The position numbers and the translations under genes are program-made. 64,000 nucleotides of DNA from an uncultured virus (IMG/VR IMGVR_UViG_2061766007_000697) (Duplodnaviria; Heunggongvirae; Uroviricota; Caudoviricetes): the IMG/VR virus record IMGVR_UViG_2061766007_000697; one strand, given 5' to 3'. This document shows, piece by piece, positions 12,736-38,900 of the stretch. Positions within the stretch are counted from its first letter, which is position 1. Each line of letters begins with the position of its first letter. The notes under the pieces were generated by a model. The model saw nothing but the letters and a program-made list of their open reading frames with translations, was not told where the DNA came from and made no database searches.

Positions 12736-13328
12736 ATGTATGCTGGCATCTTTATCGCAGTCGCAGCGATCCTTTATGTCAGATGCGACAACCCCATTGT
12801 TGGAGCAGTGCTGTTCTCTGTAGGCCTGCTGTCTTGTTTGATCTATCAGGCGAAACTCTGTACAGGCTTGGCTAATTCCCCGTGGCACCAGCTTTATAAG
12901 CCCTGGAGAAAAGATGCCAGATTACAGTGCTGGCTTAAAGAACAATCCGCGTGGCTTCTGTTATATGTGATCAACTGCTTCTTTGCCATGTGGCTAGGCT
13001 GTTGCGCGCGTATATGTATAGATGTAGATAGAGCAGTAGACATTGTACAGACCAAAGTAAGTCATCCTTGGTATTGGATTCTGTTCATGGGATTGCTCTG
13101 TGGTATCTGCATCCAGTGTGGTGTACACGCATTCAAGAAGAGTAGAGAGTATTGGCCTTTTGTCGTGCTCTGTGTAGCAAGCTTCCTTATGATGGGAGCA
13201 GAACACTGTGTAGCCGATGCAGCCNNNNNNNNNNNNNNNNNCTGGAGTTCGGCTTTAAGTGTGCAGAGCTTATCGGCGTGTCTGGTTTAGGCAACTTGCT
13301 TGCCGGTGCGCTATTTTATAAGTTGTAA
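12736..13328 (+). CDS. Formate/nitrite transporter (FNT) family channel
   Basis: Hydrophobic; motifs AGIFIA, LFSVGL, LCTG, GLLCG, F..GAEHCVAD typical of short FNT proteins; RBS ggagg; C-terminus follows a gap, end approximate. Confidence 0.8.
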
Positions 13329-13341
13329 CAAAGGAGCTTCT

Positions 13342-13614
13342 ATGCAACCACCAGCACATTCTGCAGAATTCGTGAGAAGACTTTACTTGTCGAATGCTGC
13401 ACCAATAAAGTCAGGTGTGTTGCGTGTTATGCTTATCGAAGCCGGCATCAAGGAAGCAAAGTGTGAGATCTGCGGATTATCTGAGTGGATGGGAATGCCT
13501 ATACCGTTAGAGCTGCACCATAAGAACTGTAATCATTTCGACAACTCAGAGGATAACGTCATGATATTGTGTCCAACATGTCATGCGCAGATAACAAGAC
13601 ACATATCAGAGTGA
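13342..13614 (+). CDS. HNH endonuclease (zinc-binding)
   Basis: CEICG...LELHHKNCNHFDNSEDNVMILCPTCH; RBS aaggag. Confidence 0.9.
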   Translation: MQPPAHSAEFVRRLYLSNAAPIKSGVLRVMLIEAGIKEAKCEICGLSEWMGMPIPLELHHKNCNHFDNSEDNVMILCPTCHAQITRHISE

Positions 13615-13652
13615 GTTACTATAGTGGTGGCTCATTGACAAGCGAAAGAAAT

Positions 13653-13911
13653 GCAAACTCAAGAAATGTTGGCTCAGAGGCAGCCATCATCTAAGGAGTG
13701 CGGGGNNNNNNNNNNTGATGCCTGCTGCTATGGCATATAAATGATCAACTCTAGAGCTCTGATCTATTAAAGTCATATGTCAGGTATGTGTCTATGATGT
13801 GCTGCTGGGAACAACGGGAATAAGTGAGGTTAAAGACCTCCACGTAGGTTAGAAGGTGGCCACCTACTATGACGTAGCCTGCTTTGGCGTAATAGCACAT
13901 CAAGAGTTTGT
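13653..13911 (+). ncRNA. 23S rRNA H43-H44 (L11-binding, GTPase-associated centre) mimic with ~187-nt insert
   Basis: ATGTTGGCTCAGAGGCAGCCATCATCTAAGGAGTGC ... GTAATAGCACAT aligns to E. coli 23S nt ~1057-1104; closed by gcaaactc/gagtttgt stem. Confidence 0.75.
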
Positions 13912-13920
13912 TTTAGTTTT

Positions 13921-14008
13921 GGCGTCTTGGCAGAGCACTCGATTGCAGACGGTCTGAACCCGTCCGTGGGTAATACCACCGCGTGTGGAAATCACGCAGA
14001 CGCCGCCA
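13921..14008 (+). tRNA. tRNA-Ser(UGA), atypical loops
   Basis: Acceptor GGCGTCT/AGACGCC, discriminator G, CCA; anticodon stem GACGG/CCGTC with loop TC-TGA-AC; long variable arm. Confidence 0.75.
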
Positions 14009-14016
14009 ATGATTTT

Positions 14017-14092
14017 TGCAGGCTATAGATCCGGTGATCTTGCCAGGTTCATACCCTGGAAAGCAGCGTTCGACTCGCTGGCNNNNNNNNNN
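14017..14092 (+). tRNA. tRNA with CAU anticodon (Met/fMet/Ile2); 3' end in gap
   Basis: CCAGG-TTCATAC-CCTGG anticodon arm; CAGCG-TTCGACT-CGCTG T arm. Confidence 0.75.
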
Positions 14093-14113
14093 NNNNNNNN
14101 NNNNNAGTCATAA

Positions 14114-14190
14114 GGAGCTGTATTTCAATTGGTTAGAAAAGCAGTCTCATAAACTGCAAGTTGCAGGACCGTACCCTGCCAGCTCCACCA
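14114..14190 (+). tRNA. tRNA with CAU anticodon (Met or Ile2)
   Basis: GGAGCTG/CAGCTCC-A-CCA; GCAGT-CTCATAA-ACTGC. Confidence 0.85.
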
Positions 14191-14197
14191 ATTTCAT

Positions 14198-14305
14198 GCG
14201 TGTCAGCCAACTGTTGGCTCCGCCGATGCCTGGTGCGATCTGCAATAGTGCCAGGACAGGTACCCATCGGCCTGACGCTGGGTTAGAATCCCAGGGCACG
14301 TTCCA
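14198..14305 (+). ncRNA. tRNA-like RNA with greatly extended anticodon arm (Cys-like)
   Basis: GCGTGTC/GGCACGT-T-CCA acceptor; CTGGG-TTAGAAT-CCCAG T arm; nested GCCGATG/CATCGGC and CCTGGTGC/GTGCCAGG stems capped by CTGCAAT. Confidence 0.6.
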
Positions 14306-14315
14306 TTTTCGATAT

Positions 14316-14462
14316 GGGTAGTTACAACGGTGTAGAATGGGCTTTTGCAGTAAGCCCAGGATTATCCGAATGTAGCCTTGACAAGCACTTACAGCATAGA
14401 ACACGTGACAATGTGCTGCGGAGGTTCGGAGAGGCACTGGTGAGACCCCGGTACTACCACCA
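14316..14462 (+). ncRNA. tRNA-like RNA with ~75-nt variable region
   Basis: GGTAGT/ACTACC-A-CCA; ACTGG-TGAGACC-CCGGT T-like arm; TGGGCTT-TTGCAGT-AAGCCCA arm. Confidence 0.55.
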
Positions 14463-14467
14463 GTTTT

Positions 14468-14543
14468 GGGCGGTTAGCTCAGTGATTAGAGCGTTTGCTT
14501 TACACGCAAAATGTCGGGGGTTTGAACCCCTCACCGCCTACCA
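14468..14543 (+). tRNA. tRNA-Val(UAC)
   Basis: Canonical cloverleaf; TTTGC-TTTACAC-GCAAA; CCA end. Confidence 0.92.
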
Positions 14544-14548
14544 TTCAT

Positions 14549-14677
14549 GCACCGTGCACTACCTGATCAGTAAAGTGCGCCATATGCAGATAGAACAAGC
14601 TGCGCTCTGTACTAGTTAAAGAGCGTGAAAAGCACTGGAGTGCGGATACGTAGGTAATGACCTATGGCGGTGCACCA
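14549..14677 (+). ncRNA. CCA-ended tRNA-like RNA (129 nt)
   Basis: GCACCGT/GCGGTGC-A-CCA acceptor; CGTAGG/CCTATG T-like arm; internal GCACT/AGTGC and CGCTCT/AGAGCG hairpins. Confidence 0.5.
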
Positions 14678-14693
14678 TTTAATACGAGGACAT

Positions 14694-15062
14694 ATGCCAG
14701 ATCCAAACGAAGTAAAGATCAATCCGTCTATAGATACACACGGGCTCTCTGAAAAAGATTACATGGAGTCTATTACTGCTTGGCGTGATGCTGTAATGGG
14801 TAGAACGGATGCAGTCCATCTATCAGAAGGGCTCTGTAGCCTACCAGAAGATGAGATGTCTACAACAGCACAGGAAGCTTTCGATAATTTCATACAACAG
14901 CTACAAGTCCCACAGGAGCCCATATTCATCGGCACCCCAAGAGGGCGCTCATTCTTAGACGTTTTTACCAATGCCCCTATAGAGATGCCAGAACATCTAG
15001 TCCATTGGCATCAGCGCGTCGATGATCCCGATAACATCGACAGTAACATAAACGAAATATGA
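14694..15062 (+). CDS. Hypothetical protein
   Basis: gagga RBS before ATG (MPDPNEV...). Confidence 0.55.
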   Translation: MPDPNEVKINPSIDTHGLSEKDYMESITAWRDAVMGRTDAVHLSEGLCSLPEDEMSTTAQEAFDNFIQQLQVPQEPIFIGTPRGRSFLDVFTNAPIEMPEHLVHWHQRVDDPDNIDSNINEI

Positions 15063-15072
15063 AAGGCTAATC

Positions 15073-15257
15073 ATGAAACATCTGATTACGCTGGCTGCCA
15101 TTGTAGCTCTCCTCACTGTGTCCGCTTGCAAGAAGGCTGACAAGACCGAGGAACCAGCTACNNNNNNNNNNNNNNNNNNNNNNNNNNNNNNNNNNNNNNN
15201 NNNNNNNAGCAGCCCAGACCATCGTTGCTACGCCTGTGGAAGAAGCCAAGGCTGAAT
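15073..15257 (+). CDS. Small lipoprotein
   Basis: Signal peptide with lipobox LTVSA-C. Confidence 0.7.
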
Positions 15258-15440
15258 AAGCCACAAGACAACAGATCTATGCGCTAAAGGAGATTGGCAC
15301 CTTGATGACGCATAGACGGCGGGCTTACTGTTTAAGTCAAAGCGATTCCTATAGGCCGTGCCTAGGCCAGGGTCTCTAATATCGCACCAGTGCTGCTTGN
15401 NNNNNNNNNGCACCATTAACGCTGAATAAAGGATTTCAAC

Positions 15441-16013
15441 ATGAAATACAAAGTCTTCATCGTATCCCTCGTCCTCTTCTCGTTTGCTCTTCTGGTTACT
15501 GCATGCGGACACAATATTGCTACACAGACCAAAGGCATCGGTATTGATGTCAGCTGGACTGGTAATAGTTATGTGCCGAATCTGAAGCTCGGTTACTGGG
15601 ATGACAACAATGCTGTTGTCCGTGGTAATACTACAGTTTCATCCAGCACTGCTAGCGGTGGTAATGTTATCGGTGGCGGAGGCGGTACTTCTCAGACGCT
15701 GCAGATAGCTACCGGTACACAGGTGAATGAGGGTTACATCAAGGACATTTTGACGGATCCTAATCTAGATACTGTGACTAAGGTGGCATTTGTGGAAGCG
15801 CTGACGAAGCTGCAGCAACCACAGACGGCTAACGCCTATAACCAGACCACATCGACTGCAAGCGGTATTACTAAGGAGACTGTTGAAGTGCCTGATCCGG
15901 AACAGCAGATCAAGGATACCGAGCAGGAGATCGAGGTACTTATTAAGAAGCTGGAAACACTTGAGAGGAGTGCCGATGCTCCAAAGGCTGTACCAGCTGC
16001 GGAACAGAAGTAA
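15441..16013 (+). CDS. Lipoprotein
   Basis: Signal peptide with lipobox LVTA-C; aagga RBS. Confidence 0.75.
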   Translation: MKYKVFIVSLVLFSFALLVTACGHNIATQTKGIGIDVSWTGNSYVPNLKLGYWDDNNAVVRGNTTVSSSTASGGNVIGGGGGTSQTLQIATGTQVNEGYIKDILTDPNLDTVTKVAFVEALTKLQQPQTANAYNQTTSTASGITKETVEVPDPEQQIKDTEQEIEVLIKKLETLERSADAPKAVPAAEQK

Positions 16014-16021
16014 GTGAACAT

Positions 16022-16096
16022 CTGGGTGTAGCTCAGAGGCAGAGCGCGTGCTTTGGGAGCATGAGGTCGAGATTTCAACATTCTCCACCCAGACCA
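16022..16096 (+). tRNA. tRNA-Pro(UGG)
   Basis: CTGGGTG/CACCCAG-A-CCA; CGTGC-TTTGGGA-GCATG. Confidence 0.9.
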
Positions 16097-16105
16097 TTAA
16101 TATAT

Positions 16106-16195
16106 GCCCAGGTCGCAGCACGGCCGACGCAGCACCCTTGTAATGTGCCAAAGGATCTAAAACATCCGAAGTGAGTTCGACTCTCACCCTGGGCT
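16106..16195 (+). tRNA. Type II tRNA, Tyr-like body with ambiguous anticodon loop (GUA or UGU)
   Basis: GCCCAGG/CCTGGGC; GTGAG-TTCGACT-CTCAC; long variable arm; GCAC-CCTTGTAAT-GTGC; no encoded CCA. Confidence 0.6.
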
Positions 16196-16206
16196 TGACC
16201 TTTTAT

Positions 16207-16283
16207 GCTCGTGTAACCGAATTGGCATAGGTATCAGAATTAGAATCTGAGTTTTGAGTGTTCGACCCACTCCACGAGCACCA
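16207..16283 (+). tRNA. tRNA-Leu(UAG) with short variable loop
   Basis: GCTCGTG/CACGAGC-A-CCA; TCAGA-ATTAGAA-TCTGA. Confidence 0.85.
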
Positions 16284-19485: not shown

Positions 19486-22400
19486 TCAATAGAAGTCATC
19501 ATAATCTTGTGTTACAACTGCGCAGTTCATACTGATAGCATCCTGGAAACGCTCAAAGTCACCACGAGGCCCATAAACTTCAGGTATCTCCTCTTCGTAC
19601 AGCGGTTCCAGTCTAGATGTGTCATAACGTCGGCCAACAGGCAGGTATGCGCCAAAGGTATCACCAATCTGTGTGCAGGCAAAGTTAACCGCATGTGCTA
19701 AGTCGTCGCTTTGACAGGCTTTGCGACCTATCAATATAACAACTTCGCGCCCTCTGATGTCTCTAGGATCTTCTACAAGCGCTAAGAAGTCACGTATTGG
19801 CTCAGACTCGTCATCGTGATTAAATCTGCGTACACGTATACGTTTGGCCTTGATGCCCGCGATACACATAGCCAGAGAACGACTCTTATCTGTTATATAA
19901 TAGCTAAGGTCTGNNNNNNNNNNNGACGCATCACATCACCACCACGAGGAGGCCCATACTGTTGAGGAATTACTTTGAGTCCTTGTATATCAGACAGACC
20001 TTCATGTTTCATGATCTCTGTTCTCACGAAACCAGCTCCACCATTATCGAAAGTAAAGGCATTAGCCTGGGTACCAACAATCCACGACATCAATATCTTG
20101 GCTTCTTCTGTGGGTGATACACCTTTGGGGATTCTCTCGCTGTAGAGAACATCCATAACCTGATTGTCTTTGCGTAATCCAACTACAGCAAATGCAGTAT
20201 AAGAATCACTGATAGCAGATCCACCGCCCCAGTCACACCCTATAGAAATATAAGAATAGTTTAGTGCAACCTTTCTTACATCGGCTGGTGNNNNNNNNNN
20301 NNNNNNNNNNNNNNNNNNNNNNNNTCGAATTCTGCATTAATAAGATCTGATAGTGTTAGCGGACTGGTTGCATCATCATAGGGCCATCCAAAGATTTCAT
20401 TTTGGAGGGTCACAGTAGGCAGTGTTTCCGTCTTATGGAGTAGTTTTCTCCACTTCATATCATTTATACTATGTATAGCATGAACGACTTGTGCCAAATG
20501 ATAAGATGGAAAAGTGAGTGATTTTTCAGGATATCCATGAACCCATCCGCCATGCGCTATTATTAGAGGTTTGCCGCATTTAGCACAAATAGGGCCATGT
20601 TTACCAATCATCTTTAGAAGATGCTGTTCCGGATTAGGAATATTAAAGAAGCCACAGGCATCGCAGCGAATAACCCACTCTGCCTGTGAGCTCATACTCC
20701 AAAGTCTTGCCAGTGTGTTGTCTGTTGTTTTGGGTGTTCCTGTGTAGATAGAGAAACCCCAGTTAATAGACGCAGACATGCACTCTTCAATAATAGGGAT
20801 AAATTCCCAATTCATATCTTGGCAGTTCTTAGAAAGAATACCGCTACCGAGAACATAGTTGTGTGTGCCCTCGACCTCTATATCATAGCCGGGGAGCACA
20901 CCAACATATTCAATGTTTACGATTCTGTCGAGGAAGAAGTCTCCAACCCATTCTGCATCTGCTGGTACAGGGCCCATGCTACAGGATCTTTCTGGATCAT
21001 CTTCAGGCGATCCTCCGCATGCTCGATTGCATAGATGTGAATGAACTCCAGCTGCTGCTCGCGCTTCATACTCTTCATCTTGCCAAACATATCCCTCCAG
21101 CAGATCCTCCGAGCAAATTCTTCCGGTTCGTTNNNNNNNNNNCTTTGCACGATAGGCTTTCTCTTGTGCTTTGCGTTCCGGTTTCTGTCGAGCAATCTTC
21201 TGCAGTTCCAGTGTGCGCTGATAACGCTCCGGGTCTTGTTTCTTGCGCTGATAATAACGAGAGCGTTCCTCTTTCAGCTGTGCCTCGTATTCCGGATCGC
21301 CCTTCTTGCTCTGGCGCCACTCCCGCTTCACAGCATTGATGTGATCCCTGTTGGCTTTCTGCCATGCGGCCATCTGTGCAGCTCTGTGGGCCTTCTGCTC
21401 TTCGGTCAGATTGGCACGATAGGCTGCCCCAGCAGCACGTAACTGCTCTCTGTGCGTCTCGCGGTACGCTGCTGCCTTGGCAAGAATCTCCTCCAAATGC
21501 TGCTGTCTGTATTCCAAGTAGTATTCGTGCTTGTTGGCTTTCGCATAAGCCTCTCTGCACTCTTTGCTGCAACATGGGGAACTGCCATTCACAGTAAATA
21601 CCTTTCCACAGTTTGGACACGTCTTCTCCACTACCTTCACCTTGTATTGCATGCATTCTGGAACAAAAGGTGAAATCAGGTTTGCTAGTGTAATATAGCC
21701 ATTCCTCGGAAGAAGAATTATATGGCTGAGATTCCCGGTACTGCTGTGTTTCACCATACATGGTTTTGCCTCGATTCCCCAACGAACAGTCAGCCACTGA
21801 CACAGAAGATTCACTTCCTCTTCCGAGAAGCTGTTTGTTGAGATTGCTCCTCCGTTCCTGTCTTTCCCACGACTCCCGTCGTCCATGAACCACCATGCGA
21901 GCGCAATCGGATGTGTGATCTCGTTCAAGTATTCCACAGTGGCTGNNNNNNNNNNNNNNNNNNNGGTGTACAAAGAGTGAAATATCGGAAGTGCCTTCAA
22001 AGTCAACACGACCCAGAAGTCCCCGTAACCTGGATTCTTTGTCACGAACGGAGGACGCGTAGCGAACTCTTGTAAGACTTCGTACTTGTGAATCACGTAG
22101 TCCTCTTGCACTTGACCATGATTCCAGCGAATTGACTGTGTGTGATCGCTGCTCTTGCGAAGAGAGGCATCTCCCAGAAGACTGCCCATGATCGCATTCA
22201 CCTGCTCCTCGGTCATCCCGATTGCAGCCGCTTGTTCTACTATAGATGTCATCTATAATATCTCCAACACGCATCGGACCATGGTCAGTAGGCAGAACGT
22301 GATCTGCCGTGCAGGTCAAAGAACGACCTGATTTGGTAGTGACTTTGAAGTAGTTTCTATAACCGTGGAAAGATGCGTTTTTTGTCACCACACTTATAGT

Positions 22401-34842: not shown

Positions 34843-35921
34843 ATGCTAAATCAACAACTATATGATGCCCTCCTCAAGATATTCGGCAAGGTCGAGGTCG
34901 CTAACGAGGGTATTCACTCACAAATCTATGTCAACCCAAATGGCACAGGTGACTGGTCAGTAGCTAAGGATGGCGAGGGCGGCGAAGAGTACCGCGTTAA
35001 CTGCCCTTTCTGCAGAGACCACAAAGGTCACTTGTATATTAGCCACATGTCCTACGCAGCACCAGTGGTGAATGGTATGCGTTTGCAGGTAGGCAGACTT
35101 CTTGCACACTGTTTCAGACGTGAATGTCTCAAGGACCCCAACAACAGGGACATCCTAGAAGGCAGGATCGGTATGGCAATGGCTGGTGAGGGGTCTGCAC
35201 CTGTTGTGGATATGTCGGCGCCTGATGAGGTTGAGATGGAACTTAATCTGTCTAATGAGCTGACACTAGAGGGTTTACGTACATGGATCCCGGACTGGCA
35301 GCTTATAGACGACAAAACAGATCCAGCAATACTGGAGTATCTGGAAGAAAGACGAATAACACAGGCCGATATTGACTGGCTCCATATCGGGTGGGGCCCA
35401 ATCAAGTCACTGCGCACTGGCGGATATCTGAATCACGGACATCCATGGGTGCTGTTTCCTGTGCTGCGAAACGGAAAGCTGGCTGGCGTACAAGCTAGAT
35501 GTCCTTCGCAATTCCTTGAGGCTGATGGAATTAAATATTACTTTCATCCGGCTTGCAGGAAGAAAACAATCGTCTTCAACCTTGATATAGCCAGACAGAT
35601 AGGAGTCGGTGTGCTCTGTGAAGGCGTGTTCGATGTTGCAGCTATAGGGAAACCTGGTGTCTGCATCTTTGGCCACACACCTAGTCTTACACAGAAGCGT
35701 CTGCTGGCTGCCNNNNNNNNNNNNNNNNNNNNNNNNNNNNNNNNNNNNAAGTAGCTGAATGGAATGCTGCTGGCGTGTTTCCCAAGGGTGCCCATGTGGT
35801 TACGCTGCCATTGAAAGATGCTGGCAGCATGACAAGACAGGCAATCTGGGAAACGATCTTGCAACAGGTACCGCCTGACATGCAGGAAACACTGCTGAAG
35901 GATGCGGTGCCAAAACTGTGA
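34843..35921 (+). CDS. DNA primase (zinc finger + TOPRIM)
   Basis: CPFC..H, CFRREC, LCEGVFD, KDAG. Confidence 0.85.
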
Positions 35922-35932
35922 AAGGAGGATGT

Positions 35933-38900
35933 GTGGAATCACTCGCCACCACTGATGTTCACATCAAGAACGTGTTCGACGGGCCGGTAGAAGTCAAGTT
36001 ATGGACCAAAGCCGACCCGTTTCCGCCACTTGGTACCGAAGTTGGGGTCGATACCGAGACTGAACTGATAACAGAAACTAACTTGGCGCCTCCATTGGTA
36101 GTGCTCGGAGTTTTCGATCCGCAAAGCGCTACATGCTGGATAAGCTATTGGGAGGACGCTGCAGTGTTCATCAATCAGTTGAGTAATATGGAAGTACGGC
36201 AATATTATTTCAATCTCGGCTTTGATGAACAGGTCCTTGATAATGAGGACAAAGACAAGGCCCTTATGGACGCAATAGAATACGGTCGTGTCCGCGATAT
36301 GCAAATACGGACGCAGCTGTATGATATTGCTACCATAGGGTNNNNNNNNNNNNNNNNNNNNNNNNNNNNNNNNCTTGATAAAGGTGAGAAAGATGATCCT
36401 GAATCACATCGTCTTACTTTCAGGAGAGGGACGCCAATAACAAAGAAACAGGCTGTCTATCTGGCATGGGACTGCATCTCTACGTATAGCATAAGTAAAG
36501 CTGTAAGTGAGCAGCCTACTGAAGTCCAACATACAAAAGGAATGTGTGTTCTGGCACACATCAGTGCTAATGGCTTCCCAGTGGATATGCGTGTGTTTAA
36601 TGCCTTTGAAAGGAAACTGCAAGCGCAGAAGGATGAATATCGTCTTAAACTGCTTGACTTCGGCTTCCCGGATCCATACGGTAAGAACCGCGACGAAAAC
36701 GGAGAATATAAAGAGTTTGTTTCCGTACAAGCAGAACAATTTATATCTTTGGTAAAGAATCGTGGAGAATTCGGTCAACTCAATCTATGCAAAGGAAACA
36801 TCCGTATGGCGTTGCTGTACATGTACAACTTTGCGGACGATAACAAGCATTGGGCGGACTTTGAGGAGAGCTGCGCGTACTGGCTCACCTGCGATAAGCC
36901 CAAGGCACTGAGGAAGGCTGAAAAAGAGTTGTTCAACAAGATGCTGGATGAGATAGACGGCTTTGAGTCTTATTTCGCAGCAGGTAAGGAGATCGTAATG
37001 AATGCGCTGTTGGGACACGTTCTTGAAGATCTACTTACCCAACAGGAGACCAAGGCAGAGAAAGGCTACGATTTCAAACAGGCAGCTGCACATGCCGCAG
37101 AGGTCATAGACGACAATTCACACTGGTTGAACAACGAAAAGCAAGTAGGTCCAAAAGTATTTCTTCAGCAACATATCGAAGGGCTACTAAAACAAAACCC
37201 AAAGCTAGTCCTCGAGAAAACAGAGAAGTCTGGTGAGTACAAACTGACTCTCAAGGACATGTGGCGCTTAGATGATTTAGGAATCAAGGATCCGTTCATC
37301 GATTGTCTGACTCATTTCAAGCACGCAGAAAAGCTGTTAAGCACCTACTTGAACAAAGAATATGTAAAAGAGGATGGCAAGATACATTCGCACTTCCAGA
37401 ACCTGATGCGAACAGGCCGCACCTCTTCCAACTCACCCAANNNNNNNNNNNNNNNNNNNNNNNNNNNNNNNNNNNNNNNNNNNNNNNNNNNNNNATATAA
37501 GGATAAGCCTATGATTCCTAGACGTAAATGTGAAATTTGCGGGTCTTCTATAGATCCGGACACTGTTCGCACAAGAAAGCGTGCAGGTAAAAGCATAATA
37601 TGCAGAAACTGCATAGATGTTGAAAGAGCGTTGCAGAGAGCATATAGAATAGTGTTAAAGAAAGAGGCTCTTAGTAAGAAGACCTGTGTTATATGTGGTG
37701 GTCCTATACCGTGGAAAGACATGTATGACAGGAAGTCAGAAAAGTATTGGCCAGAGACTTGTTCGCCATATTGCCATGNNNNNNNNNNNNNNNNNNAGAA
37801 TAAACTCAAAGAATATCTGTTACAGGTAGGTCACCCTTGTACACACGATCAGGCATTACATGGATCGCATCTTGCTAGTAAAGTCTTAACAAAGCTAGGT
37901 GTAAGTATATTAGCGGTACAAAAAGAGCTGTTTGGTTTACAGGTTGATAGAGTGCACGCGGATATCAACCAGGTTGAGCCAATAACAGCTCCGGAACTGC
38001 AGGATCTTGTTGCTAAGTATGGTATAGATGCTTGCTCATATGCTGAGTTTTGTGATAAAGTAATAACTAAGCACGAAACCGACAATTATGCAATAACACC
38101 AGGTCTTGTAGAGGACCTCTATTTATCTTATATAGGACATGTCGGCCATTATGTTCCTAAAGTGGTCATTATAAAGGGATTGTTCCATGATAAGTGGGCA
38201 GTAAGGAATGCAGCTATAAATATAGATTCCATTAGCATTAACTGGAAAATGGGCTACAGGGATCCAAAGAGATCCTGGTATGAGATAGAAGCTGGTTTAT
38301 ACTTAAGGAAGCTGTTTGGGCATAAAAATGTAAGCGCAGAGCATACATTCACTGACTGTAGATCTAATAAGAACTTTCCATTGCGGTTTGATTTCTATGT
38401 ACCATATCATAGACTTCTGGTAGAGATTGATGGAGAGCAGCACACAGATAAGAACAACGCTTTCTATACAGAACAGTTAGCTGCAAATGACAGAATAAAG
38501 AAGGATTATGCAGAGCAGAACGGGTACACACTGGTTCGTGTACCTACAATGCCTAGATTCACATTTACGTCAAGATTAGAAAAGGCAATTATGGATGTTG
38601 TAAAACCCGCTGAATTGCTGGAACCCCTAACGGAGAATGCCGAGGGCAATCAGCAGCCAAGATCAGATGATGAGTTCGACGTGCAGCCGGATCTCGGATT
38701 TTGATAAGGCTCAGAGACCATCGAAAAGCGCTTATAGCGAACCCAGTAGAGTAGGCAGTAACGGCTGTCGAAGCGGCGGGGGCATTATGCCAAGATATGG
38801 TCCGGCACTCCTGGAAACAGGAGGCTAAATACGTAATAGCAAAACTGTAAACAGAATTTGCCTAGTAGGGATGCTACATTCCCTATCAAGAACATATTCA

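Follow-up and report, generated by a model that had tools for sequence, protein, structure and literature searches.

Why would a bacteriophage carry, just ahead of its tRNA genes, a short piece of DNA that reads like ribosomal RNA? The question is raised by positions 13653-13911 of a 64,000-nucleotide stretch of DNA from an uncultured virus of the Caudoviricetes (IMG/VR IMGVR_UViG_2061766007_000697); we refer to this whole stretch as the window. Few parts of the ribosome are as conserved or as well studied as the GTPase-associated centre (GAC), whose 58-nt core can fold and bind uL11 by itself. An earlier note on the window, made from its letters without database searches, had read the locus as a free-standing copy of this centre. 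The window itself is phage DNA: it encodes a terminase, an SbcC-like protein, helicases, a primase, a DNA polymerase, an NAD-dependent ligase and a thymidylate synthase. At the head of the tRNA genes we find a 259-base RNA whose two ends together rebuild the uL11-binding part of 23S rRNA. We conclude that 13653-13911 encodes a stable non-coding RNA belonging to a large family carried by phages.

How close is the resemblance? The letters quoted in the earlier note were found at the positions it gave. Against a true enterobacterial 23S sequence (L121; L001 was also used as a true 23S comparison), 30 of 36 bases are identical over 13666-13701 and 10 of 12 over 13889-13900, and a degenerate pattern for the 36-mer at 13666-13701 matched the window once and 0 of 100 shuffles. 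The note had placed the break between the two halves at 13701|13889. This was wrong: the family alignment gives 13699|13887, the GC at 13700-13701 opens the stem of an insert, and the real equivalents of G1091 and C1092 are 13887-13888. The copy of 23S H43-H44 therefore consists of 13666-13699 plus 13887-13900. Nor are the 187 nt in between a gap, as had been supposed; they hold a variable domain (37-334 nt) that defines the family, followed by a UUUG linker.

Read along the + strand, the RNA opens with the 5' strand of a closing helix (13653-13665), the equivalent of the top of H42, in a register common to 64 other members: GCAAACUC at 13653-13660, the AA of an internal loop, then G13663 (1054), A13664 (1055) and A13665 (1056). 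GCAAACUC pairs with GAGUUUGU at 13904-13911, which bears out the proposal that the element has a closing stem of its own. Further in, past a 2x2 A/A loop, the helix continues with G13663-C13901 and A13664-U13900, which stand in the register of 23S pairs 1054-1105 and 1055-1104. There follows AUGUUGGCUCAGAGGCAGCCAUCAUCUAAGGAGU (13666-13699), which comprises the H43 equivalent (13666-13690; 23S 1057-1081), a CUAAG turn equivalent to 1082-1086 and closed in the window by a C-G pair (13691-13695), and the family-conserved GAGU equivalent to 1087-1090, the 5' strand of H44 (13696-13699). A1067 corresponds to 13676, and the H43 equivalent has C1066 together with G1070, as does one true 23S (L058). 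The inserted domain of 183 nt (13700-13882, with 13706-13715 masked) lies between U1090 and G1091, in the 5' strand of H44; GCGGG at 13700-13704 pairs with CCUGC at 13878-13882 as its base stem. After it comes the UUUG linker (13883-13886), which is specific to the family and missing from rRNA. The strand ends with GGCGUAAUAGCACAU (13886-13900, its first G being the last linker base), CAA and GAGUUUGU. This last part holds the H44 tip and 3' strand (13887-13898: G1091, C1092, the loop GUAAUA with the A1095 equivalent at 13891, G1099, C1100, A1101 and C1102) and the 3' strand of the closing helix (13899-13911: the A1103 equivalent, U13900, C13901, the AA loop and GAGUUUGU).

The tertiary-contact nucleotides U1060, A1088, G1071, C1072, A1084 and A1085 and a pair of the G1055-C1104 type are all present in the window. 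So are the H43 stem with its 9-nt loop, the closing pair of the 1082-1086 turn, the GUAAUA tip closed by pairs 1091-1100 and 1092-1099, and the H42 three-way junction. Of the 32 pairs scored, 29 form in the window (all 17 in the core and insert stem, 12 of 15 in the closing helix). The rebuilt GAC, consisting of the top of H42, H43, the 1082-1086 turn and H44, is self-closed, and the locus is almost certainly a true family member with the GAC fold. The equivalents of A1067 and A1095 are kept, as the note had stated. Its list of compensatory changes stood in part: the C1082-G1086 and U1090-A1101 equivalents are there, but U1090 is usual in many bacteria (true Firmicute-type 23S reads GAGUGC...GCUCAC), and the special base in the element is A1101.

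Perhaps the locus is nevertheless simply a fragment of a 23S gene? A real 23S has an uninterrupted H44 hairpin with U1101; here a 183-nt insert and a 4-nt linker break the hairpin, and the base is A1101. The LSU rRNA model (Rfam RF02541) had no match at its gathering score in the window, nor any at E<=10 in 13300-14300. Rfam matches in the window were limited to three tRNAs and one group I intron (38549-38824), and at 13653-13911 there was none even at E<=10, which agrees with the claim that no other rRNA lies nearby. The flanks of the element are unrelated to true 23S flanks, and 23S sequence does not continue beyond H43-H44.

We scanned IMG/VR with the H43 loop word, which gave at least 119 loci. 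Both halves were scored as present where the 5' half was followed, 37-334 nt later, by the word (U)UUGGCGUANNAGCACAC. At least 69 of 120 loci examined (119 of them from the H43-word scan) carry both halves, and the scan provided at least 64 distinct IMG/VR copies in addition to the window. The rest of the 120 were true 23S (L001, L058, L061, L113), chance matches in coding DNA and copies without an identified 3' half. A second scan, with the 3' word alone, returned 120 loci with 106 distinct pattern matches, at least 80 of which have the 5' half in fixed register.

Cultured phages carry the element as well. Scored with the family model described below (R1), it is complete in Pseudomonas phage pf16 (100.9 bits), where it lies between tRNA-Asn and tRNA-Pro, in Xanthomonas phage XacN1 (98 bits), where it follows a protein gene, in Aeromonas phage 4_4572 (95.5 bits), 20 nt before tRNA-Met, and in Cronobacter phage GAP32 (85.9 bits); none of the four is annotated. 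The XacN1 copy begins 7 nt past a gene annotated as a 2'-5' RNA ligase (L372 830-1737). A match in Paenibacillus phage Pd_22F (58.1 bits) proved to be true 23S with 23S flanks and was not counted; this genuine 23S lies in an unannotated gap of the record (L371, ~1440-1620) and is either host DNA or a real capture. Among bacterial genomes (596 Gb) the 3' word had 114 matches, about 39 of them mimics, mostly in MAG bins of many phyla. The 15 that we read of the other 74 were chance matches in coding DNA, plus one CRISPR spacer. This spacer, on a Thiothrix fructosivorans contig (L257, 701-718 and flanks), contains the family 3' word and the bases that follow it, with regular repeats GTTCACTGCCGGATAGGCAGCTTAGAAA on both sides. 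Hence a host took a spacer from a phage GAC-mimic gene.

In megablast and blastn searches of the window against cultured phages only tRNA and HNH pieces matched, a neighbouring 321-aa protein had no relative in IMG/VR, and two window-specific patterns had no match in JGI metagenomes. The closest blastn matches of the window insert among the family loci were 19-21 nt long. Rfam 15 has no model for the family, as judged from the window and seven family loci; the best match was a partial LSU hit of 28.5 bits, with a cut-off of 50. A phage GAC-mimic RNA was likewise not described in the literature searched, the main texts of papers open without subscription, and we know of no mobile-element RNA class that is a base-for-base, self-closed GAC copy under purifying selection in phages of many host phyla. 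The family was found in no database or paper and appears undescribed.

Is the shared structure maintained by selection? We aligned 65 sequences with MAFFT (alignment A1) and scored 32 pairs. Paired cells made up 83.0% of the total, compared with 63.5% in shuffled alignments, and none of 500 shuffles reached 83.0%. The covariation score was 0.489, versus 0.149 when shuffled and 0.08-0.18 with slid partners. Across the 65 sequences, pair 1058-1080 is UA in 30, GC in 23 and AU in 7; pair 1082-1086 is UA in 29, CG in 25 and AU in 6; a closing-helix pair (col13-633) is GC in 18, UA in 18, AU in 13 and CG in 8; and the first pair of the insert stem (col102-611) is GC in 27, AU in 25 and UA in 11. 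Given 25 short members, RNAalifold arrived unaided at the closing helix, at H43 and at the stem of the insert. A covariance model (R1) built from these 25 members, with the window left out, matched the window once, at 83.4 bits (E 4.4e-25) and over model positions 1-182 of 182; true 23S scored 50.5 and 49.8 bits. The proposal of a selected, structured, stand-alone RNA is upheld by these results, and the covarying homologues in phages whose existence the earlier note had wished to see checked exist in 64 other members, with strongly covarying stems.

Which bases does the family hold constant? Part of the invariance is forced by the search patterns, namely in the H43 loop for the first set and at G1071, C1072, A1084 and G1087-G1089 for the second. 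Unforced by the search, G1059, U1060, G1063, U1066, C1075 and C1079 are each present in 80 of 80 sequences of the 3'-word set, and A1077 in 79. Position 1061 varies in this set (U50/A20/G8/C2), as it does in real centres; an excerpt of PMC6239185 describes it as variable there. A1067 is conserved in 68 of the 80 (85%); the others have G (8), C (2) or U (2). In the H43-word set, A1088 and G1089 occur in 65 of 65 and U1090 in 64 of 65; G1087-G1089 are present in 80 of 80 of the 3'-word set, for which the script required GAG. A1101 is found in 65 of 65 members, versus U in all true 23S inspected. At the H44 tip, G1093, U1094 and A1098 are invariant in 65 sequences, partly because the pattern required them, and A1095 occurs in 61; position 1096 reads A49/G15/U1 and 1097 reads U36/C23/A5/G1. 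Hence compact-fold positions are kept more strictly in the family than the exposed A1067.

The insert is as regular a feature as the core, being present in 65 of 65 sequences at lengths of 37-334 nt. The linker is U in 64, U in 64, U in 63 and G in 62 of the 65, and its first two U lie outside the search pattern. With an insert after U1090 on a base stem, the UUUG linker and A1101, the window matches these family traits. RNAalifold also offered an alternative pairing, in which a linker U and the G pair with A1103 and C1102, replacing G1087 and undoing the rRNA-like lower part of H44. Covariation cannot decide this alternative because all of the bases involved are invariant; the modelled pairing leaves room for two alternative RNA states. 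Taken by itself, the window insert has an unremarkable folding stability (z = -0.84; a fold at least this good was reached by 43 of 200 shuffles), and short-word blastn of the 65 inserts against full 23S gave chance-level words only. Nineteen of the 65 inserts (for example L013, L014, L100 and, in pf16, L369 1633-1655) share a CACCCC-hairpin-GGUAAGG module before UUUG, with a GNRA-like hairpin and one covarying pair; the window insert is without it. One insert (L043) has, ~223 nt in, a hairpin GCAU-AGUACGGGAGGAA-AUGC with 12 of the 13 bases of the sarcin-ricin loop, a likeness seen in 1 of 65 inserts where ~0.1 would be expected by chance per set.

Close by, upstream of the element, an HNH homing-endonuclease ORF (13300-13614, +; phrog_14736, E 6e-19) ends 39 nt before it, and downstream ARAGORN calls six same-strand tRNA genes (13921-16283), of which the first, tRNA-Ser(UGA) (13921-14008, +), starts 10 nt past the closing helix. 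The placement on the strand of the tRNA cluster, directly before tRNA-Ser, is as the earlier note had described, and the family repeats it: in the flanks examined, 33 of 64 members have tRNA genes, which lie on the same strand as the element in 33 of 33 loci. A tRNA is found within 100 nt in 23 of the 64, often at 4-14 nt; 31 have no tRNA in the examined flank. A conserved protein neighbour was not found, the largest cluster covering 4 of 64 loci; two neighbour clusters reach that size, one of them homing endonucleases. A promoter-like site on the + strand (AAGACA-18-TATAGT, 13596-13625), 28 nt before the element, is a weak lead and not evidence by itself, because shuffles give as many: 5 such sites occur in the region versus a mean of 5.0 in shuffles, which is chance level. 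Further along, 14198-14300 resembles a tRNA in its fold: it has an acceptor stem and a T arm (CUGGG-UUAGAAU-CCCAG), while its anticodon region is enlarged by a long insertion. It is called by neither ARAGORN nor Rfam; a contig from an RNA library extends over 14196-14349. Homing elements abound in this phage. Its DNA polymerase gene (35918-38824) is interrupted by the group I intron at 38549-38824, with an HNH domain in the preceding frame, and its terminase large subunit (20276-22252) has a LAGLIDADG endonuclease-like N-terminal part.

The stretch is contained in cattle-gut metagenome runs, and one 986-nt contig, from a DNA run that belongs to a different study, extends over 13300-14043; outside the masked run it differs at a single letter. 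As an independent DNA run spans the locus, the element is genuine phage DNA and is not joined to a 23S gene, the kind of link by which the earlier note would have recognized a chimera. RNA libraries hold related sequence. Contigs of 181, 168 and 194 nt that carry the insert came from three metatranscriptome runs of two studies; they cover 13716-13884, 13716-13820 and 13716-13898 and differ at 5 of 169, 2 of 105 and 8 of 183 letters. These contigs show that close relatives of the phage-specific insert are present in RNA libraries, possibly as DNA, with ends and strand not given by the contigs. The HNH ORF and tRNA-Ser had no RNA-library contig, and this missing cover carries no weight. Depths of ~58,000 and ~40,000 over 13666-13702 in two RNA runs of study-P12 (X18 and X19) were attributed to true rRNA contigs because the loose ends of those contigs continue as 23S. 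One contig of run X19 runs from 13904 to 13663, joining one element's 3' end to another's 5' start with 17 other letters between; it may reflect tandem copies in a relative, a circular form or an assembly artefact. A contig of run X20 joins 13701 and 13880 in a relative with the same ends, where a 221-nt insert replaces 178 nt. Hence inserts are swapped between close lineages.

Could the locus be something less than a functional rRNA copy? High rRNA identity would be expected of an assembly chimera or a dead scrap of captured host rRNA, and Pd_22F shows that phage records can contain true 23S. Yet a contig from the independent DNA run reaches across the locus, non-rRNA sequence lies on both sides, compensatory changes occur in the closing helix, and the family model fits the element better than it fits true 23S; we find this explanation hardly credible. 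Almost as improbable is a self-splicing intron, whose removal would leave a contiguous GAC copy of ~75 nt. As at group I splice sites, the last base of the 5' flank is U (13699) and that of the insert with its linker is G (13886); a true group I intron lies elsewhere in the window, and an insert-less stand-alone form is known (L076). However, no intron model (RF00028) matches at E<=10, although the same library finds 38549-38824 at 63.2 bits; inserts are as short as 37 nt, some of them plain hairpins (L025, L031, L093); and no joined-form contig was reported, though contigs can miss rare forms. Both of these readings were tested and are unsupported. The rRNA ancestry might instead be incidental, the element serving as a structural or processing module of the tRNA-array transcript, such as a nuclease-resistant cap or a point where enzymes enter or stop. 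The strict same-strand association with tRNA genes, often within 4-14 nt, speaks for such a role. We nonetheless give it little credence: nearly half of the members have no tRNA in the examined flank, the XacN1 copy follows a protein gene, and a generic hairpin would not need the tertiary-contact nucleotides base for base.

What, then, might the RNA do? The earlier note had proposed a decoy or sponge for L11, stringent-response factors or defence toxins, a role that is still hypothetical. In the reading we favour, the RNA would be transcribed with the tRNA array and freed by tRNA-processing nucleases, with RNase P perhaps cutting at tRNA-Ser, 10 nt downstream. The freed RNA would adopt the tertiary structure that the 58-nt uL11-binding domain forms autonomously, and imitate the uL11 site away from the ribosome. 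We regard such action off the ribosome as an evenly balanced proposition. The favoured ligand, which we name only tentatively, would be host uL11, bound through its C-terminal domain, and the consequence may be titration of the stalk-base protein or of whatever recognises uL11-bound RNA. In 36 mimic-bearing phage records of >=100 kb (19 of them >=90% complete), L11, L10 and RelA/SpoT domains were found in none; any such ligand would therefore be the host's. An L12 C-terminal-like domain occurs in 4 of the 36 carriers, 2 over the cut-off, a count made with no control set and from which no enrichment is claimed. A 518-kb record (G035) encodes a 129-aa protein (L365 1498-1887, - strand) with a bL12 C-terminal-like domain (37.8 bits) and an unrelated N-terminus, and a second, weaker bL12-like match lies ~2 kb from its mimic.

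We favour uL11 because the nucleotides that build the fold are near-invariant while the factor-facing A1067 is relaxed. The U1060-A1088 pair, G1071 and C1072 we take to have tertiary-contact roles in the GAC fold, and A1067 is presumably the exposed adenine that meets factors and thiostrepton. The degree to which A1067 is kept would fit fold and uL11 recognition better than contact with a GTPase or thiostrepton. The uL11 C-terminal domain presumably sits near A1077, right after which, in the 3' strand of H43, 9 of 65 members have a second insert; in these it may clash with uL11 binding. Passages of PMC6239185 report that the isolated centre folds autonomously and that L11 binding needs this fold, and junction triples of the GAC are named in a part of PMC1919483.

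Two other readings also have the RNA imitate the centre. In the main rival, which we consider unlikely, it is a decoy for an enzyme or toxin that modifies or cuts H43/H44, so that ribosomes the phage needs are spared; candidates are an abortive-infection or interbacterial effector with, for instance, ADP-ribosyltransferase, RNase or methyltransferase activity. Phage tRNA arrays probably help against attacks by the host on the RNAs of translation, and the element shares their niche. Toxins directed at the GAC exist, Tre23 being an example: according to a passage of PMC8661411 it ADP-ribosylates 23S H44 within 1095-1098 and blocks the GTPase of EF-G. The H44 tip is kept in the family. On the other side, positions 1096 and 1097, which lie within the stretch targeted by Tre23, are free to vary, A1067 is relaxed, a decoy has no obvious need of the extra domain of 37-334 nt, and no anti-phage system against the GAC was found in the literature searched. 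A sponge for a stalk-base factor (a translational GTPase or RelA), with or without uL11, which would mute the stringent response or retune translation, strikes us as improbable. It draws on the contacts of the GAC with translation factors, on the retention of A1067 and A1095 in the window and on the sarcin-ricin-loop-like hairpin of L043. Against it, A1067 is non-A in 12 of 80 members, the hairpin is confined to that one insert, and RelA/SpoT domains are missing from all 36 carrier phages; translation factors, moreover, bind the whole ribosome site and not the isolated centre.

A wider proposal returns to uL11. An exapted rRNA domain might serve as a counter-measure in phages across many bacterial phyla, the uL11-loaded RNA forming an off-ribosome pseudo stalk-base that intercepts factors which the host directs to the GAC during infection, such as an abortive-infection toxin or RelA, with the insert and UUUG linker as an on/off switch. 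We consider this proposal unlikely.

How does the element compare with known systems? It has the helix order and junction of the bacterial 23S GAC (E. coli 1051-1108, the 58-nt uL11/thiostrepton fragment), with H43 and the H44 tip near-identical in sequence; the same compensatory pairs vary (1058-1080 and 1082-1086), 1061 is variable in both, and the tertiary-contact bases are kept. Unlike the GAC, it is a separate phage gene with a closing helix of unrelated sequence, a domain between 1090 and 1091 followed by UUUG, A1101 in place of U, and an A1067 conserved at 85%; it also lacks the kink-turn-bearing H42 stem and the surrounding rRNA. If the ligand is uL11 or the stalk, the principle would be that of r-protein mRNA leaders such as the L10 leader, in which an r-protein's rRNA site is imitated off the ribosome. 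Those leaders, however, are cis-acting, lie upstream of r-protein genes and usually resemble rRNA loosely, whereas the element stands alone beside phage tRNA genes and is a near base-for-base copy. We know of no r-protein leader that mimics the uL11 site. Rfam leader, GOLLD and ROOL models match neither the window nor seven family loci, and the genes downstream in the window are tRNAs.

GOLLD and ROOL, large structured RNAs of phages and prophages, share the niche of the element, in or next to phage tRNA arrays; a passage of PMC6582537 places GOLLD inside a mycobacterial tRNA cluster. They have no sequence or structure in common with the element, which is defined by its rRNA-domain copy. 6S RNA imitates open promoter DNA, and it and the YrlA Y RNAs are likewise stand-alone RNAs that imitate a nucleic-acid ligand of the gene-expression machinery. 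Bacterial Y RNAs (YrlA) carry a tRNA-like module (PMC4201824). Both differ from the element in imitating tRNA or open promoter DNA and not an rRNA domain, and neither is homologous to it.

If the RNA does bind uL11, or absorbs a factor or toxin, it would represent a new viral way to manipulate or protect translation, and it might draw attention to host defences aimed at the stalk base. Cultured carriers (pf16 on Pseudomonas putida, XacN1, GAP32 and Aeromonas 4_4572), together with standard binding assays, make the question testable.
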